Assembly: GCA_012840925.1 (NCBI GenBank)
Contig: DUVS01000045.1
Coordinates: forward strand, 23,716-87,715
Direction of reading: 5' to 3'
Length of the DNA: 64,000 nt
DNA from: Bacillota bacterium
Lineage (GTDB): Bacteria; Bacillota; Limnochordia; Darwinibacteriales; DTU012
How positions within the stretch are numbered: position 1 is the stretch's first letter; each line of letters starts with the position of its first letter. The translations under genes were made by a program, and so were the position numbers. A model generated the notes under the pieces. That model was not told the DNA's origin. It was given only the letters and a program-made list of their open reading frames with translations, and searched no databases. Shown here one piece after another: positions 20,611-56,285 of the stretch.

Positions 20611-20614
20611 AAAA

Positions 20615-37676: not shown

Positions 37677-37682
37677 GCGAAT

Positions 37683-37715: not shown

Positions 37716-37729
37716 CAAAAGAGGTAGCC

Positions 37730-39376: not shown

Positions 39377-39403
39377 TTCACAGATATTGATAGGAGGCGA
39401 CAG

Positions 39404-40375
39404 ATGTTAACAGCAAATGTCCAGCCAGTAAGTGCAAAGGATTTATATCATCAGTTCAAATCAAATCAGCAGGTGAAGTGTGCAGAGTTTCTTCAGGTTA
39501 AAGGTTTGGAAGGGTTCGACGTATACAATCCTTCGGTTCCCTTCATGTCCCATGGGGAATGGGTGATCGCAGGGCGTGTCGAGCGGCGTGATTCGGAGGA
39601 CTCGACTGTAGTCTTTTTCCGTGAGGAAGGCGGCGCACTGTCCCCGATTGCCGATGCGCCCCGGTTTTCTCTGCAGGATCCTTTTGTGACAATGATCGAT
39701 GGTCAGATTGTCTTCGGCGGGGTAAGGGTGATTTGGGAAAACGATCGTATCGTGAGTTGGGTGACAGATTTTTACCGTGGGAGCTCTATCTATGATCTCA
39801 AGTACTTTGCCACGGGCCCAGATCATATGAAAGACATCCGCCTGCTTGGCCTGGCAGATGGCAGGATAGCAGTCCTGACGCGGCCTTTAGGTGAGGCAGT
39901 GTTTGAGGCATATGGGTGCATTGCCATGATCGGTTTTGTCGTGATCGAAAGTCTGGATCAGCTTTCACCTGAGGTGATCGCCAATGCTCCTGTGCTGCAT
40001 GGTCATTTTCTTCCCCGCGAGTGGGGAGGTGCCAATCAACTGCATCTGCTGAAGAACGGATTGATTGGAGTTATAGGTCACATCGCCTATTGGGAACATC
40101 TTGAGAACGATGATCATGTGAGACATTATTACAGCTCTGCATTTGCCCTTGATCCTGAGACTAGACATATGACTGCTACCAAAGTAATCTGTTCTCGCGA
40201 TTGCTTCCCTCCGGGCGATGCCAAACGTCCCGATTTGAGAGATGTTACTTTTACTGCAGGTATCGTACGCCAGAACGGTGGTACGGCTGAGATTTACACA
40301 GGGTTGAACGACTGTCAGATCGGGCGAGCAGTGATCCCTGATCCGTTCACAGAGTATGAACAGTTAGTGCGGTAG
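39404..40375 (+). CDS. DUF1861-like beta-propeller protein (GH130/GH43-like fold)
   Basis: 323 aa, no signal peptide. My recollection of the DUF1861 family pattern. Adjacent to GH130. Confidence 0.5.
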   Translation: MLTANVQPVSAKDLYHQFKSNQQVKCAEFLQVKGLEGFDVYNPSVPFMSHGEWVIAGRVERRDSEDSTVVFFREEGGALSPIADAPRFSLQDPFVTMIDGQIVFGGVRVIWENDRIVSWVTDFYRGSSIYDLKYFATGPDHMKDIRLLGLADGRIAVLTRPLGEAVFEAYGCIAMIGFVVIESLDQLSPEVIANAPVLHGHFLPREWGGANQLHLLKNGLIGVIGHIAYWEHLENDDHVRHYYSSAFALDPETRHMTATKVICSRDCFPPGDAKRPDLRDVTFTAGIVRQNGGTAEIYTGLNDCQIGRAVIPDPFTEYEQLVR

Positions 40376-40519
40376 GGGGCAGGGTGGTGCATAGGGCTTG
40401 TATTGTCACTAATAACCACTTTACTTCCAAATAGGAGTAACCATGAGAGATGTGATTGGAGAACGAGCCAAGGTTAGGTTTCTGCCAAGTAATGTTCCAG
40501 GTGTGAAGGAGGGTGGTTA

Positions 40520-41434
40520 ATGTTTAGACTGGAGCGCATATCGAATTCGCCTGTTTTGGAGCCGCGCCGGGAGAATCAGTGGGAACAGGGTGCGGTGTTT
40601 AATACTGCCGTTGTCTATAAGGATGGGTACTTCCATTTGTTGTACCGGGCGAGTGATCGGGATTTCGAAGCTTTGAGAGATGAATGTCCAAAGGCTGAGA
40701 AAAAATTCTGTTCTGTGATCGGCTTGGCCAAAAGCCGGGATGGAATCAATTTTGAGAGGAACTCCAAGCCTCTATTTGTAGGCCAGGGAGTTCAGGAAGC
40801 GTGGGGCGTGGAGGATCCGAGAGTAACAAAGATCGGTGACACCTACTATATGGTTTATACAAGCTTCGGAGGGAGGAGTTGGAATGATCACCGGATCAGC
40901 CTGGCCAGTTCAAAAAACCTTGTCGATTGGCGGCGTCATGGCGTGCTGTTGGATGAGGTAAACAAAGACGGCGGCCTCCTCGCTGACAAAATCAACGGGA
41001 AGTATGTCTTGTTTCACCGGCGCGAACCAAATATCTGGGTTGCCTTTTCCGATGACCTGAAGATCTGGTATGACCATCAGATCGTCATGACAACTCTGCC
41101 TAACGGCTGGGAAACTAAGAAAATTGGTATTGCCGGTGAGCCAATTTTGATCGAACAGGGATATCTGATGATCTACCATGCGGTTGATGATCGGCATGTG
41201 TACCGTTTAGGTGCTGCACTACTGGATCGCAGTGATCCAACTAAGGTCCTTGCCAGGCTGCCTGAACCGATTCTAGAGCCGGAACTTGCCTGGGAGCGGA
41301 CAGGCAATGTGCCAAACGTGGTGTTCAGCTGTGGACAGGCTGTCTATGATGGCTACCTGTATGTGTACTACGGTGCGGCTGATACCGTAATCGGAGCCGC
41401 CAGAGTGGCTTTGGATCAGATTACCTTTAAGTAA
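40520..41434 (+). CDS. GH130 family protein (beta-mannoside phosphorylase/hydrolase, DUF377)
   Basis: NTAVVYKDGYFHLLYRA...VIGLAKSRDGINFER...GVEDPRVTKIGDTYYMVYT blocks are typical of GH130. Short (304 aa) form. Confidence 0.8.
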   Translation: MFRLERISNSPVLEPRRENQWEQGAVFNTAVVYKDGYFHLLYRASDRDFEALRDECPKAEKKFCSVIGLAKSRDGINFERNSKPLFVGQGVQEAWGVEDPRVTKIGDTYYMVYTSFGGRSWNDHRISLASSKNLVDWRRHGVLLDEVNKDGGLLADKINGKYVLFHRREPNIWVAFSDDLKIWYDHQIVMTTLPNGWETKKIGIAGEPILIEQGYLMIYHAVDDRHVYRLGAALLDRSDPTKVLARLPEPILEPELAWERTGNVPNVVFSCGQAVYDGYLYVYYGAADTVIGAARVALDQITFK

Positions 41435-41463
41435 GAACAAATCTACGAAGGAGGAACAACCTA

Positions 41464-42045
41464 ATGAGAACATTATGCTTGAGAAAAGTGTCTTTGACCA
41501 GTTTGATGCTGTTAGTGCTGGTTGGGGCTCTCCTGGCCGGTTGTGAGAGCAATGGGATAGCGGAGGAATCAAATCCGGCTGCAGCAGCAGTGGATCCTCC
41601 CCAGGTTGAATGGATTACCGGGCAAGTTGCTTCCGACGCAATTATCGGAATTGAACAGACAGGAGCAGAAGTTACCCTCACCATGGATGCATCCTATGGA
41701 TATGCGAAAATTGAAAACGTCGTTATTCCGCAAGAGGCAGTTCAGGCAAAAGTCACTATTGTTGCAGTAAGCGCAGGGCAAGCAACTGGAGAACGCAACC
41801 TGTGGCGGTTGAGAATGACTACACCTGAGCAAGTGGTTATCAATGTAGGCGGCGGCGGTGCTGCAATACCGGGATATGTGGAGTACATCGAATTGCGGGA
41901 CCAGTTCCTGGCCTTGGTTCAAGCCGGCATGCCAATACCCGCCCTTGAACTTGGAGGCACCTGGGCACTTGGAGAATCGGTCACTTTTAGGTTGGAATTC
42001 CTGGATAGTGACGGCAACTTGCTGCACTATTTTTCAAAAAAGTAG
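41464..42045 (+). CDS. lipoprotein with uncharacterised about 120-aa C-terminal domain
   Basis: Lipobox LLAGC. RBS AAGGAGG. C-terminal domain shared with 48752..49717 (NLWRLRMTTPE / FRLEFLDSDGN versus FWRLRLTNPE / FKLEFLDAEDN). Confidence 0.7.
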   Translation: MRTLCLRKVSLTSLMLLVLVGALLAGCESNGIAEESNPAAAAVDPPQVEWITGQVASDAIIGIEQTGAEVTLTMDASYGYAKIENVVIPQEAVQAKVTIVAVSAGQATGERNLWRLRMTTPEQVVINVGGGGAAIPGYVEYIELRDQFLALVQAGMPIPALELGGTWALGESVTFRLEFLDSDGNLLHYFSKK

Positions 42046-42047
42046 AA

Positions 42048-42719
42048 ATGGGCAGTGCGAGCATGGTGCGAACAGATGGTGTTCGATTGAAAGTGGTGGT
42101 CTTTGGCGACAGCATTACATTCAATAACGGCCGCTTGAAGTGGAAGCATTGGACTGAGCTGCTAATGGAAAGGTTTGGCGTAGAGATCATCAATGCAGGC
42201 GTCGGTGGTGATACCACGGTCAAAGGATTGAAGAGAATCCAGACAGATGTCTTGGACCACCACCCTGACATTGTGTTGATCAATTTCGGTATGAATGATC
42301 ATGTCAAAGCAGGGATGAACGCTGAAATCGTGACCCTTGCGGAATATGAGCAAAACCTGAAGACGATGGTTGAACTGGTGCGTGCGGCCGGCGCGGTTCC
42401 ACTACTCGTCACTGTCAGCTATATCTATGAGGGAGATCCCAATAACACCAACGAGAATTACTATTACAACCGCCACGATCCGGCCTACTATACCGATGAC
42501 GGTGGAGCGTTGGCCAGACTGGACAAGTATATTGATGTAATGCGGAGAGTTGCCCTGGAGTATGATGTGCCCCTTGCTGACGTTCGTGCTGCCTGTGATC
42601 AGTATGATCCCCGGGAATTTACCCGCGACGGCGTCCATATATCGGCGTTAGGAAATGAAGTCTGGGCTGAGGTAATCGGGGCTTGCCTGGCTAATCAGGT
42701 TTTTCCAGGCCTGCTCTAG
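42048..42719 (+). CDS. SGNH/GDSL hydrolase (esterase/deacetylase)
   Basis: VVVFGDSIT block I, GVGGDT, DGVHIS block V. The true start may be downstream (ATG 42063 or TTG 42087). Confidence 0.8.
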   Translation: MGSASMVRTDGVRLKVVVFGDSITFNNGRLKWKHWTELLMERFGVEIINAGVGGDTTVKGLKRIQTDVLDHHPDIVLINFGMNDHVKAGMNAEIVTLAEYEQNLKTMVELVRAAGAVPLLVTVSYIYEGDPNNTNENYYYNRHDPAYYTDDGGALARLDKYIDVMRRVALEYDVPLADVRAACDQYDPREFTRDGVHISALGNEVWAEVIGACLANQVFPGLL

Positions 42720-42763
42720 ACTGTTTTGCCGTTCGATTTGAGAAACTGCAGAGGTGATAGTAC

Positions 42764-45166
42764 ATGAAAACCCGTGTGTTGATGATTTTGTTATTGCTAT
42801 TGACCATCCTTGTGCAACCAGTATTGGCTCAGCCAGGGCAGCAGGCCATTGCAGCAATCGAAATTATGCCTAATATTCCGCAGCCGTTTGAAATGCGGGA
42901 CTGGAAAGAAGTGGCTCGACGTTATGATGCCCTGCTCTTCGATTTTCACAGCTCAGGTGAGCATCTGCCGCTGATTAGATGGGATAACAGAAATGTCAAT
43001 TTCAAGCTGCAGAGCTTCATGATTCCTTCATATATCGGTGCATCAGGGGGCAATGAAGCGCTTACCCAGATCTCTGCGGTCCTCGGCGCGTCTTTGGTTG
43101 GCATAGACAAGAGCAATCAAAATGGACACAACTGGGTTTTGATGACTAAGCAATACTTCAATGCCAAGAATGGGCTGGGCATTATCAACAACAACGTAAA
43201 CTCGACCGGTGGAAGCTTCTGGTACAATGTTTGGCCGGGCATGCTCTTCTTCATGCTGGCCGATCAGTACCCTGAAGTTGCCCAGATTCAGACTCCATTG
43301 AATTTTACAAACAAGTCGATGAGCATGTCCGACATAATGTATACCAATGCTCAGCAGTGGGCTTCTGCAGTTGCAGATCTTCGGAACAGGCCGGATATAA
43401 ACCGGGTCAACCTGTTACGTTATGATCTCATTAATCGCCAGCCAGTTTACCGATATGAGGACGACAAATACCGTTTTGCCCATGGCAACCAACTGCCGGA
43501 AGGTTTGGTGGGGATTGCCTGGATGAACTACATGGCCTATGTAACCTGGGGTGAGCCTCAGTTTTTGGAGACAGTGGAGTGGTGCATGGATTTCCTTGAC
43601 AATCTTGACTACAATCCGCTCTATGAGGTGATTATTCCCTACGGTGCATACATGGCTGCCCGATTGAATGCTGAGCTTGGTACGAATTACGATGTGAAAC
43701 GGTATATTGAGTGGACTTTCGGGCCGGCGGACGCTCGCCCGGGCTGGGGGATCGTTCACGGCACATGGGCGGGCAAAGATGTGAATGGTTTGATGGGCAG
43801 TATCAGTACCGATTATGTCTTTGCCATGAATACATTCGCCACTGCAGCGGCGTTTGTGCCTACTGTCCGCTATGACCCCTCTTTTGCGAGGGCAATTGGC
43901 AAATTCGTTTTAAACCTTGCCAACAATGCGCGGCTGTTCTACGGCAAGTATCATGATGCCGAACACAAAACCCGCCCTGATTGGCAAGGGGATCCTGATT
44001 CTGTGATCGCTTACGAAGCCTTGCGCCGGGAATGGAACGGCAAGACTCTCTATGCCATGGGCGACGGAGTGAAAAACGGCTGGGCAGCCACTGATTTTGG
44101 ATTGTACGGTTCATCGCATGTAGGGTTGTTGGCGGCTTGTATTGCACCGACCAATGATGAGAAAATCCTGCAGCTGGATCTTTTGGCGACTGATTTCTTC
44201 CATGCTCCGGCGTACCCAAGTTATCTCTACTACAATCCTTACAGCGAGGCACGGAAAGTGGTAGTTGACGTAGGAGATTCCGAAAGCCGGCTTTATGATG
44301 CAGCGACCAAACAGTTTATCACCGGACCGGTTGTTGGCGAAGTGGAATTCGAGCTGGATGCAGATTCAGCAGCAGTCATAGTAGTAGCACCAGCCGGTGG
44401 AGAGGTAAGTGTTGACGGGAAGCGGTTGTTGGTTGATGGTGTCGTAGTGGATTATCAGTATGCCTCGCTTAGGCTTGGCAACTTACAGGATGGATCCATT
44501 GTTTACGGGCTCTATCCTGTTGAGCTGAGTTCAGTTCAAATCAATGACCCGATCACCCATACTGCTGCCTACCTTAATCAGCAGGAGGTTTTCAGGGCCG
44601 ATGGTTTTGTTGATCAGTTCACCCTCGATGCATCCGGTATGGCCAACGGCAGTGTTTGGGAGTTGAGAGTCGAGGCCGAGACCAGTACTGGGTTTAAGTA
44701 CACAGATAAGGCCCTGGTTACCATTGATAATCGGGTTTTAGGCAGAGCTGGTGCCTTGAATCCACTCAACTGGAATCCCCATGAGCTCTACCCTGCGGCA
44801 ATCCAGGTCGAGAATCAGGCTACAATGATTCAGAAGCGCAATCCGAATGATCAGTGGGGCGGGGTTGTCAGTCCCGTTTTAGAACTGGACCTTCAGCGCA
44901 AACCAATCCTAAAGCTTTCCGGGGTCTATGCGCCCGGGCAATATGTGATCAAACTCCGCTGGGCGGATGGCACCGAAACTGCCCTGGTTGAGCAGACAAC
45001 CAGCGCCCAGCTCGAAATTGATATTGCTGAAACCCTGCATCAGGCCCAGGAGCAGATTGGAGCAGGTGTCCACCAAGTTCAACTGATCATCGGCAGCTAT
45101 TCGGCAACCAGGCGGGTAAGCATCTGGAATTTTGCCACTAGTGTAGAGCTGTTTTATCTAGAGTGA
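42764..45166 (+). CDS. secreted paralog of the unknown family with about 260-aa C-terminal extension
   Basis: 800 aa. SPI signal peptide (PVLA/QP). N-terminal 540 aa collinear with 37730..39376. Beta-rich C-terminal extension. Confidence 0.7.
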   Translation: MKTRVLMILLLLLTILVQPVLAQPGQQAIAAIEIMPNIPQPFEMRDWKEVARRYDALLFDFHSSGEHLPLIRWDNRNVNFKLQSFMIPSYIGASGGNEALTQISAVLGASLVGIDKSNQNGHNWVLMTKQYFNAKNGLGIINNNVNSTGGSFWYNVWPGMLFFMLADQYPEVAQIQTPLNFTNKSMSMSDIMYTNAQQWASAVADLRNRPDINRVNLLRYDLINRQPVYRYEDDKYRFAHGNQLPEGLVGIAWMNYMAYVTWGEPQFLETVEWCMDFLDNLDYNPLYEVIIPYGAYMAARLNAELGTNYDVKRYIEWTFGPADARPGWGIVHGTWAGKDVNGLMGSISTDYVFAMNTFATAAAFVPTVRYDPSFARAIGKFVLNLANNARLFYGKYHDAEHKTRPDWQGDPDSVIAYEALRREWNGKTLYAMGDGVKNGWAATDFGLYGSSHVGLLAACIAPTNDEKILQLDLLATDFFHAPAYPSYLYYNPYSEARKVVVDVGDSESRLYDAATKQFITGPVVGEVEFELDADSAAVIVVAPAGGEVSVDGKRLLVDGVVVDYQYASLRLGNLQDGSIVYGLYPVELSSVQINDPITHTAAYLNQQEVFRADGFVDQFTLDASGMANGSVWELRVEAETSTGFKYTDKALVTIDNRVLGRAGALNPLNWNPHELYPAAIQVENQATMIQKRNPNDQWGGVVSPVLELDLQRKPILKLSGVYAPGQYVIKLRWADGTETALVEQTTSAQLEIDIAETLHQAQEQIGAGVHQVQLIIGSYSATRRVSIWNFATSVELFYLE

Positions 45167-45214
45167 CTAGACAACTCAAGCTGGCGCAGAGCATAGACCA
45201 TGGAGGTAATACAA

Positions 45215-48200
45215 GTGTGTAAATCCTGGAACAAGATGAACTGGTTTTTTAAAGCATGTTTGATCTTCTGTACAATTATTGCTGCTGCCTGCCCCAGTGC
45301 AGCCAAGAAAGTGGTGATGGAGTCGCAGCGGGAAATCCCCATTGTTCAAACAGTTGATGTGATTGTAGTCGGAGGTACTTCTGCCGGGGTGGCAGCAGCA
45401 GTGGAAGCTGCCGCACATGGTGCCAGTGTCATCTTGATCGCTGAGCGCCCCTATCTCGGTGAGGACATTGCGGGCACATACCGCTTATGGCTGGAGAATG
45501 GTGAGGTGCCAGATTCGCCATTGGCTGAAGCTGTGTTCAAAGAATCTTTTGCATTACCACAGGGAATGAGTTTTACCTATTCAGCCAATCGCCAGCCTTC
45601 CGGAGGCCATCTGGACAACCTGCAAAGGCCAAAACTGACAGACGGGTTGGCTACTAACGCGTCAGGCAACAGCGTCCAGTTTAATACCGATGTTTCCATT
45701 ACCCTGGACTTAGGGGAGGTTAAGGAGTTCAACTGCGTCGATTTGTTTGCCTTCCAGCGGCCCCGTGATTTTGAAGTTGCTGCTGTGACCGTATATACAA
45801 GTAATGACCTGCGGTCGTGGCAGCAGATCGGCCGGGTTGTAAACAGTTTGGCTGGAACAGAACGCTTTGAGACAAACGGAGGCGTTCGCTTGTCACTGCA
45901 ACAAGCAGCCAAGGCCAGATATCTTAAGCTGGAAATCAACAAAAGCAGCAATTCCAAACGGATGTTACTAGCCGAAATTGTTGTCCGGAAACTGGAATCG
46001 GGTTTTGCCGAATACCGGGTGCCGCCAACCATGATGCAGGTTAAGAAGTCGTTGGAAACAGCGCTGCTTGAGAGCGGTGTCAAATTTCTTTACAGCTCCT
46101 ATGCGACTGAAGTGTTGGTCGACAGTGAGGGCAAGCTGGGCGGGATTGTGATCAGCAATCGCGCCGGACGCCAGGGAATTGTCGGTAAAGTGATTATTGA
46201 TGCCAGTACTCATGCGGCGGTAGCCAAAGCCGCCGGGGTCAACTTCACTCCGTTTCCCAGCGGTGATCATCTCTTCACCCGGGTTGTTGTAGGTAATGAG
46301 ATATCGGTGAAAGCGGATCCAAGCATTGTTACCGCCCGAGTGCTGCCAACACGGCTGCCGGCTGTCGGGGGGAACAACCAGGCTATCGAGTATACGCTTC
46401 GCATTCCTATGGCGGACGGTTCCTACGCAGCGTACGCTGAAGCCGAGCAGATTGCCCGAAGCATCACCTGGGATCCATATCAGGCGGATGCTTCCGAGAT
46501 GCTCTTTCATATCCCGCCTATCCACATTTCCGGCCAGATGCCGGATCAAGGCCCATGGCTCGGAGCAGACAAAATGAACTCGAATGCTTTTAAGCCTGCC
46601 GGGGTTGACCGCCTGTATGTCCTCAGCGGATACGCTGACATCTCACGGGAGGCGGCTGCCCAACTGCTGCGCCCTCTGGAGTATATGAAGGCAGGGGCAC
46701 GAATCGGTATCGAAGCTGCGGCAGCGGCTGCAGAATCACCATTTCCGGAAAAAGTGACGGTTATAGGAAACGACAAGGACATCCAAGCTGCTTCCGATTC
46801 AGCGGTCGCTGCCGGAGATGTTTCCGAGCTGCTAACCGGGATTCGGCCGACCCAAACCGGACTGCCTGCACTACTTTCCCCCTTGCGTCCCCTGCCGGTG
46901 TTAGGCGAGTATGATGTGGTCGTTGTTGGTGGCGGTACTGCCGGAGCTCCGGCAGCGATCGCAGCCGCAAGGCAGGGAGCGCGGACTCTGGTGGTGGAGT
47001 ACCTGTATGGGCTCGGCGGTATGGGAACTATCGGTCAAGTAAGCTCCTATTTTGCAGGATATACCAAAGGGTTTACTGCCGAAATTGACAAAGGCGTGGA
47101 AGCGCTTGGCGGCATTGATCCCTGGAATGAAAAGGCCTGGAATGTAGAGGCGAAAATGGAATGGTACCGGAGAGAGATGCTGGATGCAGGCGCCGACATT
47201 TGGTTCCATACAATGGGCATTGGCGCAGTGGTTGAAAACAACCGTGTTCAGGGCGTTGTCGTGGCCACTCCCCATGGCCGCGGAGTGGTGCTGGCAGATG
47301 TAGTCATTGACGCAACAGGAAATGCAGATATTGCCATTGCTTCGAATGCAGTTTACCGGTTTACAGATGCGGAGCATGCAGCAATGCAGGGAGCTGCGGT
47401 TGTCTACCGCGATCTGCCTCCAGATAACAAGTACTGGTTTGTCAATCTCGATTGGATGTTTATCGACGAGATGGATCTGATCAATGTGTGGCATGCTCTC
47501 GTTATTGGCAAAGAACGATTTGCAGACAAATTCGACCTTGGCCAACTGATTCAGACTCGGGAAAGGCGCAACATTGTGGGGGATTATGTAGTCTCCCCGG
47601 TGGATGTGGTAACTGGCAAACAATTCTACGATACTGTTGCCTTTGCCAAATCCAGTATCGATTCACACGGGTTCTATGTCCACCCCTTGTTTATCATCAG
47701 CCCGCCTGAACACCGTCAGTATCAGTCCAATATACCCTACCGTGCCCTTCTGCCAAAAGGGCTGGATGGGATCCTGGTTGTAGGGCTTGGGATCAGTGCT
47801 CACCGTGATGCTATTCCGGCTTTGCGGATGCAGGCCGACGTGCAAAACCTTGGCTACGCAGCGGGTGTGGCGGCTGCCATGGCGGCAAGGGAGAAGAGTT
47901 CCACCAGAGGTATTGATATCCGGAAACTTCAGGAACACCTGATAGCCATGGAAATTATCACGAGGGGAGCTGTTGTGGAAAAGGATACCCCACCCAGCAA
48001 CCACGACGTTGTCAAGTATGCCTTGAGCACATTCAAACTCAATCTGCGCAATGTACCGCTGGTCCTGGCGGCAGAACCTGATGTGGCTTTAGAACTGCTG
48101 CGCGAGGGATACGAATCAGGAACACTTGATCAAAAAATCAGAACATACTACGCCAAGATCATGGGTGTCCTTGGCGACCCTACCGGGATAGATGATCTTA

Positions 48201-48709
48201 TTGAAGCTGTCAACAGCTACAACCAGTGGGATCAAGGCTGGGATTACCGAGTCTATGGAGTTTATGGGGATTGCCGCAGCGAACTGGACAGCCTGGTGAT
48301 GGCCTTAGGCCTTTCTGGAAGCCCGAAAGGGCTGGAGGCTGTCCTGAACAAAGCCGCGCTGTTGGATGCCAACAGTGAATTTTCGCATCATCGGGCTGTA
48401 GCCGTTGCCCTGGAAGCTATAAATCATCCTGAAGGTGCCAAGGCTTTGGCTGAACTCCTGTCAAAGCCGGGCATGCGAGGGTATGCGGTTAAGACTTTAG
48501 ATGATGCGAAGAGGTTGTACTTCATTGGAGACATTACCCATACTCTCCGCGATTACTCCCTGCGTGAGCTGATTTTAGCCAAAGCATTGTATGCCACTGG
48601 GGATCATCAAGGAATTGGCAAAGCCATTTTGGAGGAATATGCACAGGATCTGAGGGCGCTTTACTCAAGTCATGCCGCTGCCGTTTTAAAAGCGTATGGG
48701 AGCAAGTAA
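45215..48709 (+). CDS. multidomain lipoprotein: two FAD-binding Rossmann modules, discoidin-like insert, C-terminal HEAT-like repeats
   Basis: DVIVVGGTSAGVAAAVEAAAHGASVILIAE and YDVVVVGGGTAGAPAAIAAARQGARTLVVE motifs. F5/8-type-C-like segment (SITLDLGEVKEFNCVDLF...RYLKLEIN). PBS-lyase/HEAT-like C-terminal repeats. Lipobox-like IIAAAC. GTG 45215 is 7 nt after GGAGG. ATG 45200 is an alternative. Confidence 0.7.
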   Translation: MCKSWNKMNWFFKACLIFCTIIAAACPSAAKKVVMESQREIPIVQTVDVIVVGGTSAGVAAAVEAAAHGASVILIAERPYLGEDIAGTYRLWLENGEVPDSPLAEAVFKESFALPQGMSFTYSANRQPSGGHLDNLQRPKLTDGLATNASGNSVQFNTDVSITLDLGEVKEFNCVDLFAFQRPRDFEVAAVTVYTSNDLRSWQQIGRVVNSLAGTERFETNGGVRLSLQQAAKARYLKLEINKSSNSKRMLLAEIVVRKLESGFAEYRVPPTMMQVKKSLETALLESGVKFLYSSYATEVLVDSEGKLGGIVISNRAGRQGIVGKVIIDASTHAAVAKAAGVNFTPFPSGDHLFTRVVVGNEISVKADPSIVTARVLPTRLPAVGGNNQAIEYTLRIPMADGSYAAYAEAEQIARSITWDPYQADASEMLFHIPPIHISGQMPDQGPWLGADKMNSNAFKPAGVDRLYVLSGYADISREAAAQLLRPLEYMKAGARIGIEAAAAAAESPFPEKVTVIGNDKDIQAASDSAVAAGDVSELLTGIRPTQTGLPALLSPLRPLPVLGEYDVVVVGGGTAGAPAAIAAARQGARTLVVEYLYGLGGMGTIGQVSSYFAGYTKGFTAEIDKGVEALGGIDPWNEKAWNVEAKMEWYRREMLDAGADIWFHTMGIGAVVENNRVQGVVVATPHGRGVVLADVVIDATGNADIAIASNAVYRFTDAEHAAMQGAAVVYRDLPPDNKYWFVNLDWMFIDEMDLINVWHALVIGKERFADKFDLGQLIQTRERRNIVGDYVVSPVDVVTGKQFYDTVAFAKSSIDSHGFYVHPLFIISPPEHRQYQSNIPYRALLPKGLDGILVVGLGISAHRDAIPALRMQADVQNLGYAAGVAAAMAAREKSSTRGIDIRKLQEHLIAMEIITRGAVVEKDTPPSNHDVVKYALSTFKLNLRNVPLVLAAEPDVALELLREGYESGTLDQKIRTYYAKIMGVLGDPTGIDDLIEAVNSYNQWDQGWDYRVYGVYGDCRSELDSLVMALGLSGSPKGLEAVLNKAALLDANSEFSHHRAVAVALEAINHPEGAKALAELLSKPGMRGYAVKTLDDAKRLYFIGDITHTLRDYSLRELILAKALYATGDHQGIGKAILEEYAQDLRALYSSHAAAVLKAYGSK

Positions 48710-48751
48710 GAAACAACTAACATAGCAAATATCAAATGAGGTGAAGTTACT

Positions 48752-49717
48752 GTGAAAAGATCAAATTTGTTGAGTGCTATTTGTTTAATCGCATTATTGT
48801 TCAGCGGATGCTTTTCCTTTGGTGGTTCATACAATGTTTCCGGGACTGTCGTTGATTTGGACGGCAATCCGATTGCTGGCGTTGAGGTAGTCGCTGAGGG
48901 AGAGAAGCCGGTGATCGAGAGCACAGATGCTGAAGGCAAGTTTACTTTTACCGGCCTTGAAGGTTCAGTCACGATATCTGCGCAAAAAGACGGCTATCTC
49001 TTTTCTGGGCCGTATACTGTGAAAAAGCAGGAGAAAGCCCTGGAAATTTTAGGTGTTGTTGGTAGTGTCGATGTATCTGGCGAAGGTACTGTCCAAGTTG
49101 CTCTGAATGAGAACGGCACAGCGACCTTGAAAGCAATTCCTGATGGAGACTGGGTATTTATCCGGTGGGAAGGAAGCCTGGACGGAAACACCAACCCGGC
49201 CTCGGTGACTTTTGATCAACCAAAGAACATTACTGCGGTGTTCCGCAACTTCTACACTGATGAAGGAAACCTGGAGTGGGCGCCTGAATTGTTAGGCCTG
49301 CCGGAATTCTGGGCTGGGCGCTACTCTAGGGAGGAATTCGTGATTGAAAGTTCAGGGGGATTCTTGAAACTGACAATGTCTCCGACATACGAATATGCAG
49401 CGCTGTCTAACGTGATCATCCCCAACAGTGCCGTCAAGGCCAGGGTCACTGTGGTTGATGTCAGCGGAAACATAAACAGCGGATTTTGGCGTCTGCGCTT
49501 GACCAATCCGGAAACAGAATCAACACAGAATGTTGCTGGAGGTAGTACTCCGGCGAAAGACGCTGTTGAAACAAAAAACATTCCAACAGCATCCCTCAAT
49601 TTGATACAAGAGGGCAAGCCAGTGAACATTGAGATTGGAGGCAATTGGACTGCCGGTGAGTGGGCAGTGTTCAAGCTGGAGTTCCTTGATGCAGAGGATA
49701 ATGCAGTGGCTTTTTAA
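48752..49717 (+). CDS. lipoprotein: CarboxypepD_reg-like domain + InlB-B/Listeria-Bacteroides-type repeat + shared C-terminal unknown domain
   Basis: Lipobox LFSGC. GTVVDLDGNPIAGVEV (CarbopepD_reg). ATLKAIPDGDWVFIRWEG...NPASVTFDQPKNITAVF (bacterial repeat domain). C-terminal domain homologous to 41464..42045. Confidence 0.7.
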   Translation: MKRSNLLSAICLIALLFSGCFSFGGSYNVSGTVVDLDGNPIAGVEVVAEGEKPVIESTDAEGKFTFTGLEGSVTISAQKDGYLFSGPYTVKKQEKALEILGVVGSVDVSGEGTVQVALNENGTATLKAIPDGDWVFIRWEGSLDGNTNPASVTFDQPKNITAVFRNFYTDEGNLEWAPELLGLPEFWAGRYSREEFVIESSGGFLKLTMSPTYEYAALSNVIIPNSAVKARVTVVDVSGNINSGFWRLRLTNPETESTQNVAGGSTPAKDAVETKNIPTASLNLIQEGKPVNIEIGGNWTAGEWAVFKLEFLDAEDNAVAF

Positions 49718-49778
49718 GCAGGCTAAGTGCGGACTTACAGTGAATCCAAGGTAAGTTACTTCCTTTTGCAAAACGAGA

Positions 49779-49810
49779 GGTGCGGCTAGCTTTTCCTGGT
49801 TAGCCGCACC
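49779..49810 (+). other. perfect 10-bp stem-loop GGTGCGGCTA-(12 nt)-TAGCCGCACC, putative locus B terminator without a clear U-tract
   Basis: Seen directly, 60 bp downstream of the lipoprotein gene. Confidence 0.4.
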
Positions 49811-49935
49811 GACTCCTATATAGTGTTTGGAACTTGGAATCGTGCCTATAGTCAGTAAATTGCATTAATACAAAGGAAATTTCCACATTGGTATGGTAAT
49901 AGTTTACTGGAAGATGTACTCGGGAAAGGGTGACA

Positions 49936-51018
49936 ATGGTGAAAGTTACGGTAAAGGATGTGGCCAGAGCGGCTAACGTTTCACCAGCAACGGTATCGAG
50001 GGTTTTTAACAACAACCCGAATATTTCCGCAGAGACTAGAGAATTGGTGGTGACGACAGCCGCCAAACTTGGATATAAACCGCGTGCACCCAAGAGTGAG
50101 CGGCAGGAAGCGATTAGTAAAAATATCGCCATCGTATTCAATAATCGGTTGACAAGCCTTGCTGATGACCCTTTTTATGGCCAGGTAATTGGGGGCATTG
50201 AGCAGATTGTCAGTCAAAAAAACTATAATCTCTTTTTTAGAACTGTGACAGGACACCTGGACAGTGATTTGGAAAGAGTAGAATCACTGTTCAACGACGA
50301 AAAACTGGCAGGTATCATTCTGGCTGGCTATGAGATTAATGAGCGATTGGTCAAACGGATTAAAGAAAACAACCTTCCCCTGGTACTGGTAGACAGCAAC
50401 TTGTATGATGAGAATGTGAACATGATCTTAAATGACAACACAGCGGGGGCGCGGGCTGCAGTCGATTATTTGATTAGTCTTGGTCACAGGCGGATTGGAT
50501 TTATCGGGGGGCCTTTAACCCATACATCATTGGATGAGCGCTACATAGGTTACAAGCAGGCACTGCGCCGTGCGGGAGTCAGGAAAAGCGAGGAGTACAT
50601 TGCGTTCTGCAAACCGAAATTTGATGCCGATGATGGGTACCGGGCAGCGTTAACTATGCTGAGAAATTGTCATCTTTTACCAACAGCGATTTTTGCAGCC
50701 AATGATATGCTAGCTATTGGTGTCATGCGTGCTGTTTTTGATCTCGATCTGAACATACCCAACGATATTTCAGTCGTGGGTTTTGATGATATTAGTATGG
50801 CTCAACATACAATTCCCCAACTGACAACGGTAAGAATTCAGAAACGTGAAATGGGAATTATGGCTGGTAAAAGGCTTCTGGAGTTAATCGAGGAGCCTGA
50901 CGTAAAACCGATAAAGGTTATTGTAGGTGTGGAGCTAGTAGTCAGGGATTCTGTTGCGGAAATAAACGAAGTGCATTCAGAGTCTGGCATAATATCCAAA
51001 AAAGAAGCCTACTCCTGA
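49936..51018 (+). CDS. LacI family transcriptional regulator
   Basis: HTH VTVKDVARAANVSPATVSRVFNN and a PBP-type sugar-binding domain. GTG 49930 is an alternative start. Confidence 0.9.
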   Translation: MVKVTVKDVARAANVSPATVSRVFNNNPNISAETRELVVTTAAKLGYKPRAPKSERQEAISKNIAIVFNNRLTSLADDPFYGQVIGGIEQIVSQKNYNLFFRTVTGHLDSDLERVESLFNDEKLAGIILAGYEINERLVKRIKENNLPLVLVDSNLYDENVNMILNDNTAGARAAVDYLISLGHRRIGFIGGPLTHTSLDERYIGYKQALRRAGVRKSEEYIAFCKPKFDADDGYRAALTMLRNCHLLPTAIFAANDMLAIGVMRAVFDLDLNIPNDISVVGFDDISMAQHTIPQLTTVRIQKREMGIMAGKRLLELIEEPDVKPIKVIVGVELVVRDSVAEINEVHSESGIISKKEAYS

Positions 51019-51042
51019 TCATAAACAACAATCATCAAGCAG

Positions 51043-51747
51043 TCAGTCCTCCAGAAGGCATTTTACAATGCCCGGCAAATGAGCCGCTCCAACCACTCCC
51101 ACCACCTTCTTGCCCGGTGCTGTTTTAATGTTTTGAGCCAGAACATAGTCCCGTTCATCGATGAGCATTCTTTTTAACTCGGGAAATTCTTCCGTGAATT
51201 TGTTCAAGAACATCATCAGGTTGTCCGGGGATTTCATAGTTTCGATCTCCGTTTCTGACAAGGTGGTTTTTGCAAGCAAGAGATTAAGAGTCTGAGCCAG
51301 CAGTTTGCTTTTCTCCATTGAGCTTAAGCTGGCCCATATTTGTCTGAAGGTTGTCTGAATATTGCAATCTGCCAAAACAAGCCGTGCTCCGCTTGCTCTA
51401 GCTGAATTGATAGCCTGAATCAGTTCTTGGCCGGGCAAGAGGTTGAGATTCCGGGCAATGCGTTTTTGCATGATGGCGATGAGTGTATTGAGTAAAAGGA
51501 ATGAACTCTTACAGGCAATATCAGCCTGGAGGTCGAAATCGTCATCAGCGAAGAAGGCACTTTCTTTGCAATCCATCTCGATAAGGGCAAGATAGCGCAG
51601 ATGGTCCAGTTCGACACATACTGTATCCGGACATTCGGTTTCGATAATAGCCTTGACCTGCTCCACACTGCGTTTCGACATATGAATCGTACCAATCAAG
51701 ATCAACTGTTTGTCATTGAGATTAAGTCTAGCAATACACTCCTCCAT
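51043..51747 (-). CDS. TraB/GumN family protein
   Basis: LILIGTIHMSKRSVEQVKAIIETECPDTVCVELD N-terminal signature. RBS AGAGGCGG before the ATG at 51747. Confidence 0.7.
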   Translation of the reverse strand: MEECIARLNLNDKQLILIGTIHMSKRSVEQVKAIIETECPDTVCVELDHLRYLALIEMDCKESAFFADDDFDLQADIACKSSFLLLNTLIAIMQKRIARNLNLLPGQELIQAINSARASGARLVLADCNIQTTFRQIWASLSSMEKSKLLAQTLNLLLAKTTLSETEIETMKSPDNLMMFLNKFTEEFPELKRMLIDERDYVLAQNIKTAPGKKVVGVVGAAHLPGIVKCLLED

Positions 51748-51851
51748 AACCTACCGCCTCTGTATTTAGAGTAATCTCTATTGATATATGCCGTAACAAA
51801 GCTGTTTGCCCGCAGTTTTGGGCTAATCTCATCGGGAAAAGGAGGTTGAGG

Positions 51852-52763
51852 ATGACAGTTATTGAAATTGACAACTTGACAAAGCGGTTTGGCAGTTTGA
51901 CCGCCCTTGATGGAGTCAATCTGGAGGTTAACCAAGGCGAAATCTACGGCTTCATCGGGCCTAATGGCGCCGGCAAGACTACCACAATCAGGATATTGCT
52001 TGGTATCTTGAAAGCTACACAAGGTACTGCCAGAATTTTTGGCAGAGATGCCTGGCACGATGCTGTGGAAATTCACAGACGAATCGCTTATGTCCCAGGT
52101 GAAGTCAATCTTTGGTCAAACCTTACCGGTGGCGAAGTAATTGATCTGTTTGTCAAACTACGGGGAACGGACAACCAAGCTGATCGCATTTACCGTGAAA
52201 AATTGATCCGGCGGTTTGATCTTGACCCGTCGAAAAAATGCGGCACATATTCAAAGGGAAACCGGCAAAAGGTAGCGTTGATTGCTGCTTTTGCAGCGGA
52301 TGCTGATCTTTATATCCTCGATGAACCGACTTCCGGATTGGATCCGCTCATGGAAAGAGTATTTCAGGAATGCATTCACGAAATCAAAGAGGCTAAGAAA
52401 ACCGTGTTTTTGTCCAGTCATATTTTATCCGAGGTGGAAAAGCTCTGTGATCGGGTGAGCATTATCCGTCAAGGCAGAATTATTGAAACCGGTACGCTGC
52501 AGGAACTGAGGCATTTAACCAGGACAGTTGTACAAGTGGAAACCAGGCAGCCCATCCAGGGTTTTGCTGGGCTTACCGGGGTTCATAGTATCGAGGAATC
52601 AGAAGCAGGCCTACTGTTTGTGTACAGCTTACAAGTGGATACTGGCCAAATCGGTGAGGTGCTTAAGCTTATCAGTCAGTATGATGTTGTGTCTTTGGAA
52701 AGCAAAGCGCCTACTCTTGAGGATCTGTTTATGCATCATTATCAGGTGGCAGGTGAAGACTGA
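51852..52763 (+). CDS. ABC transporter ATP-binding protein (ABC-2 type)
   Basis: Walker A GPNGAGKTT, signature LSGGxxQ-like (YSKGNRQKV), Walker B LYILDEPTSGLD. RBS AAAGGAGG. Confidence 0.9.
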   Translation: MTVIEIDNLTKRFGSLTALDGVNLEVNQGEIYGFIGPNGAGKTTTIRILLGILKATQGTARIFGRDAWHDAVEIHRRIAYVPGEVNLWSNLTGGEVIDLFVKLRGTDNQADRIYREKLIRRFDLDPSKKCGTYSKGNRQKVALIAAFAADADLYILDEPTSGLDPLMERVFQECIHEIKEAKKTVFLSSHILSEVEKLCDRVSIIRQGRIIETGTLQELRHLTRTVVQVETRQPIQGFAGLTGVHSIEESEAGLLFVYSLQVDTGQIGEVLKLISQYDVVSLESKAPTLEDLFMHHYQVAGED

Positions 52764-54385
52764 TGCTTAAGTCGATGCCGCTGAAGAAACAGTTGTGGCA
52801 AGGCACCTCAGTTTTGGCAGGCCTGATTTGGCGCAGGGATCGGATTCGCATTCCACTATGGATTATGGGAATTGCAGTGGTAACCCTGTTGGTGGCCTAT
52901 GCCTATCCTGGGTTGTTTCCTACCGAACTTGAGCGGATGATTATGAGTGAAACCATGAGGAACCCCGCTCTGATCGCCATGGCTGGCCCGGGCTACGGCT
53001 TGGATGATTACCAGATCGGAGCCATGTTTGCCCATCACATGTTGTTGTTTACTGCGATCGCAGTGGCAATCATGAACATCATGACAGCTGTCCGGCATAC
53101 ACGGTGCGACGAAGAGAGTGGGCGTATTGAAGTGATTCGTTCCTTACCAGTGGGGAGACTGGCGAATGCCGGATCGGTGCTTCTGGTCTTAACCATTGGT
53201 AATGTAGTAATCGGTTTGGTTGTGGGTTCCGGCTTGGCTGCATTAGGTATTGAGTCGATGGGTTTGGCTGGTTCGCTCCTGTATGGTGCAGTCTTAACAG
53301 TAACCGGCTGGTTCTTTGCCGGCATTACCGTCCTGTTTGCTCAAGTGACTGAAACAAGCCGGGGAGCATTGGGGCTTGCTTTTGGTTTCATGGGGCTTGC
53401 TTATCTGCTGCGGGCAATTGGGGATGTGAGTAATGAAGTTCTTTCCCTGGTATCACCTTTAGGATTGGTCCTCCGGTGCCAAGTTTATGTCACCAACTAC
53501 TGGTGGCCAGTCTTGGTGATGGTAGCCTTATCCGCGCTCACTGGCTTTTTAGGGTGTTATCTAAACATAATTCGGGATCTGGGTGCTGGTTTGATTGCAG
53601 CCAAACCTGGGCCTACCAAAGCGGGGCGTTTGCTGCAAACCACATGGGGCTTGGCCATCCGCCTGCAGAAACCAATGCTGACCGGTTGGGCTGTTGGGAT
53701 GCTGGTTCTGGGATTGTCTTACGGCTCTGTGTTTGCTGATTTGGACCGCTTTTTTGAATCTAGTGAGATGATTAAGGGAATGCTGCCAGCCATACCAGGT
53801 TTTACGTTAACGGAGCAGTTTACAGCACTGATTCTGCTGATCATGGCGATGTTTGCAGCCATTCCCGCACTGTTAATGGTTTTGAAGCTGCGGACCGAAG
53901 AAAAGGCAGCCCGCCTTGAGCATTTGCTGGCCAGAGCAGTTTCCAAAACGAGATTACTCTACAGCTTTGTGGTTACCAGTCTGCTTGCGGCTGTGGTAAT
54001 GCAGGTACTGGCAGCGCTGGGACTGTGGGCAGCAGCTTCTTATGTAATGGAAATTCCCTTCAGTTTTTGGCCTGTGTTAAAGGGTGCACTATCCTTTCTA
54101 CCTGCCATTTGGATTTATGTTGGCATGGCGACTTTCCTAATCGGATTCCTGCCACGTTTCACGGGCTTAGTCTGGTTGTATCTGGGTTATACATTCACAG
54201 TGCTCTATCTGGGGAGGTTGGTCAAGGCGCCGGAATGGCTGGCTAAGCTGACACCCTTTGGCCACGTCCCTAATGTGCCGATAGAGACCATGGGAGTAGG
54301 ACAAGTGGCAATCATGCTGCTGATAGCCGCAGCTTTTATCGGATTAGGGCATTACCAGTTTAGTAAAAGGGATTATCAGCAGTGA
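52763..54385 (+). CDS. ABC-2 family transporter permease (12-TM exporter-type)
   Basis: 540-aa polytopic membrane protein. ATG overlaps the ATPase stop (TGATG). Confidence 0.75.
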   Translation: MLKSMPLKKQLWQGTSVLAGLIWRRDRIRIPLWIMGIAVVTLLVAYAYPGLFPTELERMIMSETMRNPALIAMAGPGYGLDDYQIGAMFAHHMLLFTAIAVAIMNIMTAVRHTRCDEESGRIEVIRSLPVGRLANAGSVLLVLTIGNVVIGLVVGSGLAALGIESMGLAGSLLYGAVLTVTGWFFAGITVLFAQVTETSRGALGLAFGFMGLAYLLRAIGDVSNEVLSLVSPLGLVLRCQVYVTNYWWPVLVMVALSALTGFLGCYLNIIRDLGAGLIAAKPGPTKAGRLLQTTWGLAIRLQKPMLTGWAVGMLVLGLSYGSVFADLDRFFESSEMIKGMLPAIPGFTLTEQFTALILLIMAMFAAIPALLMVLKLRTEEKAARLEHLLARAVSKTRLLYSFVVTSLLAAVVMQVLAALGLWAAASYVMEIPFSFWPVLKGALSFLPAIWIYVGMATFLIGFLPRFTGLVWLYLGYTFTVLYLGRLVKAPEWLAKLTPFGHVPNVPIETMGVGQVAIMLLIAAAFIGLGHYQFSKRDYQQ

Positions 54386-54479
54386 TTTATTTGTCAGAAT
54401 CTAGTAGGGATTTTGATTAGATATGCAGAAACAAAGAACAGACTGTATTTATGCAGCAGAAATGAGGAGGGAATAGCTG

Positions 54480-55196
54480 GTGCGTAGAAGTCTGTTGTTA
54501 GTCAGTTTGCTGGTATTACTGGTTACTTTTGCATCGGGTTGCACTCCAACTGAAGAAGGATGGGTTGCTCACTTTGCTTTTGAAGGAAATCTGGAGGATT
54601 CAACTGGAAGGTTTGCTGGTGGAGAATTGATTGGTACCAGGATTGGGACTAATGTGGGCGAGATAACTCAGACAAGAGGAGAAGAGCATTACTCAGTCAG
54701 TTATGGTGAAGGGGTCAAAGGCCAGGCCATAAAATTCGACGGCAACCAAGGGGTGCTGCTGCCGTCTGGTTTGATTGAAGGATATACATATACCATCTCA
54801 CTGTGGATTAAACCTGAAGTATTAACCATGCATACTACCACCTTCTTTGGAGGAGCCAGTGACACCAGCTGGATTAGTGTTGTACCATCCGGATGGTCTT
54901 CAGGCCATACCATGATCTGGTCCGGTAATCTACAATGGTATGATGCTATATGTGGAGAGACCATTCCGCTTAACGAATGGACTCATGTTGTTGTTACCGT
55001 TGACAACGGGGATGTCACAGTATATCTTAATGGCGTGGAGAAGTTTGCCGGAACCGGATTCCCGGATGTATTCAGCCAGCTTGAAGCAGATGGAGTGTTT
55101 GTATTGGCTGTCAACTGGTGGGATCCACCGTTCATCGGGATGCTGGATGAATTGAAGATCTATGACCGGGTACTGACCCCAGATGAGATAGAATAA
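54480..55196 (+). CDS. LamG-like (concanavalin A-type lectin) lipoprotein
   Basis: Lipobox FASGC. LamG_3-type C-terminal motif DELKIYDRVLTPDEI. GTG start 8 nt after GAGGAGGG. Confidence 0.8.
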   Translation: MRRSLLLVSLLVLLVTFASGCTPTEEGWVAHFAFEGNLEDSTGRFAGGELIGTRIGTNVGEITQTRGEEHYSVSYGEGVKGQAIKFDGNQGVLLPSGLIEGYTYTISLWIKPEVLTMHTTTFFGGASDTSWISVVPSGWSSGHTMIWSGNLQWYDAICGETIPLNEWTHVVVTVDNGDVTVYLNGVEKFAGTGFPDVFSQLEADGVFVLAVNWWDPPFIGMLDELKIYDRVLTPDEIE

Positions 55197-55243
55197 TCGC
55201 GGCAAAATAAAGCTATTAGGTCAATCAATCTGGAAATTCTCGC

Positions 55244-55275
55244 AAAAAGGGCTGCAGTGCGCTGCAGTCCTTTTT
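55244..55275 (+). terminator. bidirectional rho-independent terminator AAAAAGGGCTGCAG-tgcg-CTGCAGTCCTTTTT
   Basis: 9-bp stem (one G-U) flanked by an A5 run upstream and a T5 run downstream. Confidence 0.75.
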
Positions 55276-55300
55276 CACAGTGGATGAAGGAGCTGATTTT

Positions 55301-55858: not shown

Positions 55859-55991
55859 CAAAAGCACCCTTTACGTCAAAGTGGTCTCCTTTTCCGATGG
55901 TGTGCTTTAAGTGAGACAAGGGGCCTCGGAGGAAAAACCTATTGCACAGTTGAAATACCAATAAACAGTGTTTCATGGGAGGTTGAGATGT

Positions 55992-56285
55992 GTGAAGCGG
56001 GTAAGGATATCTAAAGCTCATGTTTTGATACTAGGAGTTATCTTCGTTTGTCTATTTTTGAGCGGCTGTATTCCGGGCGATGGCAAGCACACAGAAGAGA
56101 ATCCAGCAGGATTTTTCTGGGGAATCTGGCACGGATGGATCGCTCCAATCTCACTGATCATTGGTATATTCCGTGATGGCATTCGTGTTTATGAAACTGC
56201 AAATACCGGATTGTGGTATGATTTTGGTTTTTACATGGCCATCATCAGCGGTTTTGGCGGACTCTCACTGGCTAGGAAAAAATAA
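55992..56285 (+). CDS. small hypothetical lipoprotein/membrane protein
   Basis: GTG start 13 nt after GGGAGG gives KRVRISKAHVLILGVIFVCLFLSGC (lipobox LSGC) plus one further hydrophobic segment. Start choice is uncertain. Confidence 0.5.
   Translation: MKRVRISKAHVLILGVIFVCLFLSGCIPGDGKHTEENPAGFFWGIWHGWIAPISLIIGIFRDGIRVYETANTGLWYDFGFYMAIISGFGGLSLARKK

Follow-up and report, generated by a model that had tools for sequence, protein, structure and literature searches.

In a 64,000-nucleotide stretch of the genome of a Bacillota bacterium (GenBank assembly GCA_012840925.1, contig DUVS01000045.1, positions 23,716 to 87,715 of the forward strand; hereafter the window, with position 1 as its first letter) we analyzed a gene on the + strand (45215..48709) whose product is an internal duplication of the PF12831 domain, retaining a single canonical fingerprint for binding flavin adenine dinucleotide (FAD) in the C-terminal of its two modules. 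The family to which it belongs can be read as a conserved and so far uncharacterised branch, with two modules, of the PF12831 "FAD-dependent oxidoreductase" family. We propose an exported enzyme active on carbohydrates, which has its one FAD site in the C-module and a lectin-bearing degenerate duplicate in the N-module and which would work together with an esterase on an acetylated glycan; we put the chances of this proposal at about even, and within it we infer the carbohydrate substrate and the division of labour. An earlier reading of the same DNA (the original prediction) had described a lipoprotein with two FAD-binding modules; it was right on the architecture of the protein and over-read the first of its two motifs, and what emerges is a real orphan family, not a new kind of system.

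A Pfam scan recovered PF12831 (FAD_oxidored) at 261.9 bits (E 1.7e-77; gathering cut-off 27 bits) in four stretches distributed across both modules, with Rossmann-type starts at residue 53 and, about 519 residues further on, at residue 572 (residues are numbered throughout from an upstream ATG at 45200, unless stated otherwise), and an NCBIfam scan of the protein added nothing specific to this. The paralogy of the two modules was confirmed by hhalign, which, upon removal of the insert, aligned the N-module to the C-module with a probability of 98.8% and an E-value of 1.2e-16 over 158 columns. The C-module is also related to a stand-alone, single-module PF12831 protein of 446 amino acids (aa) encoded in the same window (27948..29288, + strand; PF12831 3.4e-77 over its own residues 14-436, with the Rossmann start at its residue 14), which has no signal peptide. 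The homology between the two, already suspected in the original prediction, holds: BLASTP aligns them at 36% identity over 134 aa (E 2e-13), both belong to PF12831, and they share the signature RExR, D..D..DxxG, PYR and G...S..R......R.Q......G...G; the 446-aa protein is a distant paralog of the C-module.

In an alignment of 60 full-length relatives the C-module residues G577, G579, G582, E600 and G604-L-G-G607 are each invariant (60/60), and among about 190 full-length relatives the loop reads GGT[GAS]G in every one in which it could be located. The C-module hence carries the full set of canonical FAD-binding elements, namely GxGxxG, an acidic residue at the end of the second β-strand and a downstream GG. 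The equivalent loop of the N-module reads G58-G-[T41/S18/A1]-S-[G/A]-[G/A], with the central glycine absent in all 60 sequences, and residue 82, at the end of the second strand, is P in 19, Q in 18, E in 16, S in six and A in one, so that glutamate is found in only 16 of the 60. In this alignment the N-module accordingly lacks the canonical combination of GxGxxG and the second-strand acid. The first motif of the window protein itself is DVIVVGGTSAG, not GxGxxG, with Glu82 retained at the end of the second strand. Approximately six of the roughly 190 relatives keep the central glycine of the N-module; otherwise the set shows the same pattern as the 60. Of the two GxGxxG motifs originally reported, the second is therefore as described, being GxGxxG in 60/60, while the first is GG[T/S]SxG with its central glycine lost; the claim of two FAD-binding modules gives way to a single canonical fingerprint, kept in the C-module, and the N-module has probably lost FAD binding. 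The original prediction had itself named as evidence against it a single canonical FAD domain combined with a first motif lying in an unrelated NAD(P) domain of known function. The former is what we found; the latter we rejected, because the homology of the N-module to the C-module in hhalign shows that the first motif does not come from an unrelated domain.

Sequence conservation in the alignment is high throughout the protein, with a mean pairwise identity of 0.71 and 0.62 for the two parts of the N-module, 0.71-0.74 for the C-module and 0.56-0.74 across all domains. As the N-module is still well conserved, we take it to have diverged while staying functional, and not to be in decay. Conservation is highest in the C-module, which has 23-25% of its columns invariant and contains a dense set of invariant polar residues (RERR, D821, H823, H828, Y847-R848 and H868-R869-D870), which look like an active site.

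These observations bear on an alternative close to the original prediction, in which both modules bind FAD and the protein is a true, lectin-guided oxidase or dehydrogenase, working outside the cell and altering one sugar position with a mass change of +/-2 Da. Both modules do belong to the PF12831/Rossmann fold, the N-module of the window protein still has Glu82, the gene lies in a glycan locus, and FAD-dependent sugar oxidoreductases of other folds (GMC and VAO) exist. We nonetheless consider this alternative rather improbable, given the loss of the central glycine of the N-module in 60/60 sequences and in nearly all of the approximately 190, the lack of conservation of its second-strand acid, and the lack of both a twin-arginine translocation (Tat) signal and a conserved acceptor gene in the loci. 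Moreover, the genomes of some relatives bear the names Sedimentisphaerales or Anaerohalosphaeraceae, both of which we take to be anaerobic lineages.

We then examined the architecture of the protein using Pfam (gathering cut-offs: PF00754, 28.2 bits; HEAT_2, 27.7; HEAT_PBS, 20.9) and an AlphaFold2 model built on the 60 relatives, with a mean predicted local distance difference test score (pLDDT) of 80.6 and a predicted template-modelling score (pTM) of 0.81. The domain order of the original prediction, from a signal through a first FAD_oxidored-like module with an F5/8 insert and a second FAD_oxidored module to a HEAT-like tail, holds, and the model shows a Rossmann start, a β-sandwich at 159-263, the remainder of the first α/β module up to about residue 535, a second module at 557-925 and a tail at 878-1167 that is entirely helical. 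The first part of the N-module (45311..45604, + strand) is a Rossmann-like β-α-β unit (Pfam Rossmann-type matches at residues 53-102; pLDDT 96-98), in which the degenerate P-loop GGTSAG (45371-45388) is followed by the family motif RPYLGEDxxGTYRLWLE. Into this module is inserted an F5/8 type C (CBM32-like) β-sandwich (45629..45988, + strand), corresponding to the segment described earlier as discoidin-like; PF00754 matches residues 144-259 with E 7e-10 and 39.6 bits, over its cut-off, and the strands lie at 159-263 in the model. Next comes what remains of the degenerate FAD_oxidored-like fold (46007..46804, + strand), supported by the hhalign comparison with the C-module. The C-module itself, the canonical PF12831 domain (46868..47974, + strand), combines its Pfam match and invariant fingerprint with the P-loop GGGTAG (46928-46945), Glu600, GLGG, DATGN, RERR and GLGISAHRD...RMQ. 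The C-terminal α-solenoid (47975..48706, + strand; 27 of 244 columns invariant) was originally assigned to HEAT/PBS repeats. Its all-helical model and the match of the family profile in the tail to the designed PBS-HEAT alphaRep proteins 4xl5_C and 4zv6_A (about 1e-5) agree with this, whereas the Pfam matches at residues 1033-1089 (HEAT_2, 19.4 bits; HEAT_PBS, 14 bits) both lie under their cut-offs; "HEAT-like" is a fair label for the tail though it falls outside formal Pfam HEAT membership.

The gene is a single long open reading frame (ORF) on the + strand with its stop at 48709. A direct reading of the sequence places a ribosome-binding site, GGAGG, at 45202-45206 and a GTG start codon at 45215-45217 (feature 45202..45217, + strand); because the former precedes the latter by 8 nucleotides, GTG 45215, the start proposed originally, is also the most likely one in our analysis and yields a product of 1164 aa plus the stop. 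The listed upstream ATG at 45200 overlaps this GGAGG and has no comparable site of its own. The ORF is real, with a PF12831 match at 1.7e-77 and hundreds of full-length relatives at 47-80% identity, and as the 60 aligned relatives average 61% column identity, the features of its product are not due to chance. A scan for promoters and terminators around the gene gave counts no higher than in shuffled sequence, and operon boundaries are for this reason deduced from spacing only.

At the N-terminus of the protein, (M)CKSWNKMNWFFKACLIFCTIIAAAC, a basic n-region is joined by a hydrophobic core and, with Cys31, a lipobox-like AAAC; the segment is a Sec-type signal peptide (45215..45292, + strand) ending in IIAAAC, which matches a relaxed lipobox pattern. 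A hydrophobic signal-like segment opens all 60 aligned relatives. There is no twin-arginine in the window protein, and among 119 full-length relatives an RR is absent in 118 and incidental in the remaining one. In contrast, the lipobox-like cysteine is present in just 28 of the 119, and is missing from P0002 and P0004 (80% and 61% identity), the nearest relatives not identical to the window protein. The placement of the protein outside the cytoplasm in the original prediction is therefore supported, and Sec-type export is a trait of the whole family. The lipoprotein signal fares less evenly: a lipobox-like pattern is seen in the window protein, for which a lipid anchor is plausible, and is absent from most of the family, of which it is not a trait.

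The Sec route usually carries unfolded, cofactor-free chains. This would suit a flavoenzyme fold re-used without flavin, either as a cofactor-less hydrolase or lyase or as a non-catalytic glycan-binding surface protein, and the clear drift of the N-module from the FAD fingerprint and the presence of a lectin domain and a repeat tail point the same way. The GxGxxG, Glu600, GLGG, DATG and C-terminal helix motif of the C-module are nevertheless invariant across phyla, which would be hard to explain without a bound dinucleotide, and its invariant polar residues resemble an active site; we accordingly see little likelihood in such a re-use. Sec export of a flavoprotein would be unusual but has precedent, as flavin export for extracytosolic proteins has been documented in Firmicutes (PMC9973259).

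A word-indexed protein search recovered hundreds of full-length relatives of 1,120-1,200 aa. The closest, at 80, 79 and 61% identity, are metagenomic; identity then falls to a plateau of 47-51%, made up of proteins assigned to Planctomycetota and named at most "FAD-dependent oxidoreductase". A scan with one genome per species confirmed at least 560 loci, mostly in Planctomycetota and Verrucomicrobiota. The statistics on hosts and neighbourhoods given here are drawn from the best 80 of these, all from metagenome-assembled genomes, with named hosts including Phycisphaerae, Pirellulales, Planctomycetaceae, Verrucomicrobiota, Lentisphaeraceae, Victivallales, Hydrogenedentota and Anaerolineales, among others. 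When used alone, the second part of the N-module finds 128 representative clusters at E<=1e-30, which fall into two length classes, one of about 1,150 aa that has the lectin insert and another of about 1,000 aa that lacks it. A member of the shorter class is P0012 (993 aa; 6041..9022 in L081, the locus of the 61% relative), a cytoplasmic paralog with both modules and neither signal peptide nor F5/8 insert; its N-module loop is GGYTGA, with tyrosine at the central position, and its gene sits between those for DUF1861 and GH130. Another relative, P0095 (1344 aa), contains a complete GDSL/SGNH esterase domain between its N- and C-modules (residues 515-693), a fusion that links the family to deacetylation and matches the GDSL gene of the window (42048..42719).

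In the window, the gene order from 25988 is phosphoglucomutase/phosphomannomutase, the 446-aa PF12831 protein, an NHL+Yip1 membrane protein, DUF5696, two ATP-binding cassette (ABC) permeases, a solute-binding protein, a 548-aa protein without a Pfam match, DUF1861, GH130, a small lipoprotein, the GDSL esterase, an exported 800-aa protein, the two-module gene, a CarboxypepD_reg lipoprotein and a LacI regulator. The glycan-locus setting claimed at the outset is thereby upheld. The block comprising the ABC sugar importer (two permeases and the binding protein), a cytoplasmic (α/α)6 paralog, DUF1861 and GH130 (34422..41434, + strand; Pfam) occurs in the same order in L081 and L082. The GDSL/SGNH esterase (42048..42719, + strand; Pfam) is a recurrent partner of the family; it adjoins the relatives' gene in L081 and L082 and is also found in L027 and four other loci of Planctomycetota/Verrucomicrobiota type. 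Downstream, the lipoprotein with CarboxypepD_reg and InlB B-repeat-like regions and the LacI-family regulator (48752..51018, + strand; Pfam) likewise have counterparts, the lipoprotein in L081 and the regulator in L082. Taken as a whole, the core order of permeases/binding protein, (α/α)6, DUF1861, GH130, GDSL, two-module gene and lipoprotein or LacI recurs with the 80% and 61% relatives.

Separated from the two-module gene by a gap of 48 nucleotides is the gene for the exported 800-aa protein (42764..45166, + strand), which is kept upstream in L082. It has no Pfam or NCBIfam match; its AlphaFold2 model (pLDDT 91.2) is an (α/α)6-barrel with β-sandwich domains after it, for which Foldseek retrieves the GH9 xanthanase 6fhj, GH127 and GH15. 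We found 1462 homologs of it, including ones from Firmicutes, Paenibacillus, Planctomycetota and Asgard archaea, and judging from the model, this protein and its paralogs look like an unclassified glycoside-hydrolase-like family. One such paralog is the 548-aa protein of the same locus (37730..39376; 45% identity), which appears to lack a signal peptide, as its start aligns with residue 26 of the exported protein. The locus therefore combines an exported with a cytoplasmic form in each of two enzyme families. An obligate pairing of the two-module protein with its (α/α)6 neighbour was considered and rejected, the latter family being absent from the 80 loci of other phyla; its members also occur elsewhere without a PF12831 neighbour.

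Clustering of the neighbours in the 80 loci revealed no universal partner gene. In about 25 of them, from Phycisphaerae, Pirellulales and Aegiribacteria, the relative of the two-module gene heads a same-strand catabolic run coding for a XylA-like isomerase, a BshB1-like PIG-L deacetylase, a NagB-like protein, a PfkB kinase, DUF4432 and an MtlD-like dehydrogenase (L001, L004, L007, L011, L019, L061 and about 20 further loci). It amounts to a so far undescribed operon for the catabolism of sugars or amino sugars, with the exported flavoprotein at its head. Recurring less often are sulfatases (called by sequence appearance, not by Pfam scan), a GH5/CBM4_9 protein, GDSL+Laminin_G proteins and GH130; GDSL or GH130 adjoins the gene in other phyla too.

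We posit the following scenario for the activity of this protein. An ancestral PF12831 domain would have been duplicated, with the C-terminal copy keeping every element of the FAD site as the catalytic center and the N-terminal copy, under strong selection, most likely becoming a non-flavin structural or substrate-binding "pseudo-dimer" half. The F5/8-type-C lectin inserted in the latter would hold the glycan, the HEAT-like tail would pack onto the enzyme (the pTM of 0.81 suggests a compact assembly), and the whole, probably lipid-anchored in this organism, would act outside the cell. Its substrate might be an O-acetylated glycan rich in β-mannoside and N-acetylhexosamine, processed along with the GDSL esterase and the (α/α)6-barrel enzyme; the products could then enter through the ABC importer and be finished by GH130 and DUF1861. 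As for the chemistry, which is the weakest step, we favour a flavin reaction without net electron flow, or a self-contained redox cycle, over a simple oxidase, on account of the Sec export, the lack of a conserved electron partner and the host names linked to anaerobes; in the loci examined we found no conserved acceptor gene such as a cytochrome or a ferredoxin. A more specific form of this idea is that a single tightly held FAD runs a self-contained extracellular cycle that cleaves or remodels a glycosidic linkage and needs neither oxygen nor an electron partner. Here a transient oxidation or a covalent flavin adduct would be followed by elimination or rearrangement, which would make the protein a flavin analogue of the glycosidases GH4 and GH109, themselves dependent on NAD+, with the N-module and the CBM32 insert holding the substrate. 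We offer this last form as a long shot.

Several points weigh against the proposal as a whole. The GxSxxG or GxTxxG loop of the N-module might still bind a nucleotide, and for the C-module FAD binding is itself deduced from motifs alone. Residues 723-789 of the C-module are poorly modelled by AlphaFold2, yet are conserved in the alignment of the 60 relatives. The neighbourhoods vary between lineages, and a single substrate does not emerge from them. The notion of "no net redox" rests on absences, namely of Tat signals and of a conserved partner, and on host names linked to anaerobic lineages. Lastly, in two of the 80 loci, both from Verrucomicrobiota, the relative is divergently adjoined by a gene with FMN_bind and Fer4_5 regions, coding for a NapH/NosR-like membrane protein of 580 aa (L034 8124..9866 and L029 8196..9947, both on the - strand), which may be an electron-transfer link; in L034, DUF1501 and PSCyt2/PSD1 genes lie beyond it. 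NapH-like modules carrying flavin mononucleotide serve or pair with extracytosolic oxidoreductases (PMC8238504). Such a neighbour would fit a reductase or oxidase that acts outside the cytosol and is coupled to the electron pool of the membrane, with a glycan-derived or other small molecule as the electron sink, and Sec-exported FAD reductases, for instance flavocytochrome c3, are among the structural neighbours of our protein. This model, to which we assign only a slender chance, has to contend with the restriction of the NapH/NosR-like gene to those two loci, there being no FMN_bind- or ApbE-type neighbour in the window, L081 or L082, with the lack of an FMN_bind domain and heme motifs in the protein itself, and with the lectin insert and the esterase fusion, which point to a polymer substrate.

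Further observations concern the surroundings of the gene. The two lipoproteins that flank the exported enzymes (41464..42045, lipobox LAGC; 48752..49717, lipobox FSGC) have in common some 140 aa of C-terminal domain (39% identity, E 8e-29), for which no family assignment was obtained, and may be surface glycan-binding proteins. The 695-aa NHL-repeat/Yip1 membrane fusion and the 1001-aa DUF5696 protein (E 6.7e-182) together occupy 29336..34437, within the sugar locus; both are uncharacterised, and no paper mentioning DUF5696 was found. Further upstream in the window are genes for GH42, a GFO/IDH/MocA oxidoreductase, a BT_1020-type propeller with a sialidase-like carbohydrate-binding module (CBM), GH63-like proteins, GH2, an FGGY kinase, GH95 and an apiosidase-like protein. 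Among these, a row at 5752..9835 of a URO-D-like protein, the GFO/IDH/MocA oxidoreductase and a 608-aa BT_1020-type β-propeller/BNR/sialidase-like CBM protein resembles a system for the release and processing of an ulosonic acid (sialic acid, Kdo or DHA), and between GH42 and the URO-D-like gene is a 932-aa ORF (2934..5732) without a Pfam match. On the other side, at 58162..60386, a LigB-AMMECR1 fusion, a radical SAM protein (an AmmeMemoRadiSam-type pair), an Fe-ADH and a MatE transporter occur in an order that is kept in L082. The nearest named relatives of the phosphoglucomutase are from metagenome-assembled Clostridia (58% identity), and those of the (α/α)6 protein from Limnochordales or Firmicutes (50-51%); combined with the ABC/LacI/lipoprotein make-up of the locus, they point tentatively to an uncultured host of Bacillota type. 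GC skew is positive in every 4-kb block of the window (1..64000; 0.03-0.18), and nearly all long ORFs lie on the + strand; the segment is thus strongly strand-biased, as would be expected of a leading strand of Bacillota type.

Annotation of PF12831 proteins goes no further than "FAD-dependent oxidoreductase", and the two-module exported form is found in at least 560 species genomes from Planctomycetota, Verrucomicrobiota, Lentisphaerota, Hydrogenedentota and others, as well as in the present locus, which looks to be of Bacillota type. Because it recurs beside esterases, GH130, sulfatases and amino-sugar genes, we suggest that its chemistry is a missing step in the glycan processing of these abundant polysaccharide degraders. 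Should this chemistry turn out to be a cofactor-dependent breaking or remodelling of glycans, an enzyme class would be added; if the protein were an ordinary sugar dehydrogenase, a large orphan family would still gain a function. The combination of one canonical FAD site and Sec export sharpens the questions of how many flavins each chain carries, where the cofactor is loaded and whether there is net electron flow.

Finally, we compared the protein with known systems. For the two-module family neither a solved structure nor a published function was found, and literature searches for PF12831, DUF5696, DUF4432 or DUF1861, and for FAD oxidoreductases with polysaccharide utilization loci, sulfatases or Planctomycetes, returned no functional study; a paper on planctomycete fucoidan does not mention flavoproteins. 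Searches of PDB sequences with the single sequence and the family profile gave Rossmann-motif matches only, the best match to the half of the C-module beyond the Rossmann region having an E-value of 0.5. The FAD-binding fold is the same as that of the two-domain (glutathione-reductase-2 type) flavoproteins, among which the best neighbours are flavocytochrome c3/fumarate reductase, MnmG, geranylgeranyl reductase, sarcosine oxidase and the PHBH-type hydroxylases, with E-values of about 1e-8 and of 1e-5 to 1e-6 (Foldseek and sequence). These align in the dinucleotide-binding part only, with low TM-scores (0.25-0.44), and none stands out; flavocytochrome c3 is likewise a periplasmic FAD enzyme.

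The FAD sugar oxidoreductases of glycan catabolism include the GMC glycoside 3-dehydrogenases, the C-glycoside 3-oxidases and the VAO-type oligosaccharide oxidases. The GMC and VAO enzymes would be analogous in modifying a sugar ring, were the model of the original prediction right, but belong to other fold families, and no GMC or VAO profile in Pfam or NCBIfam matches our protein. Periplasmic GMC enzymes are typically Tat-exported with the cofactor already bound, unlike the two-module family, which carries Sec-type signals. The glycosidases GH4 and GH109 hold NAD+ tightly and employ it transiently in breaking a glycosidic bond, with no net flow of electrons, and chemistry of this kind would suit an exported enzyme that lacks a redox partner. 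As a precedent they are conceptual only, since they employ NAD+ and not FAD, have other folds and show no sequence relation to our protein. The CBM32/F5-8 modules of bacterial glycan-degrading enzymes are matched by the PF00754 hit above cut-off and the modelled β-sandwich. In the usual CBM32 enzymes, however, the module is appended, whereas here it is inserted within a Rossmann-type domain; it also appears dispensable, being missing from the cytoplasmic relatives of about 1000 aa such as P0012. A further comparison is that with the single-module PF12831 proteins, the whole profile of which is matched by the C-module, with the signature shared with the 446-aa paralog; from these the two-module protein is set apart by its duplication, the degenerate first copy, the lectin insert, the HEAT-like tail and the signal peptide.

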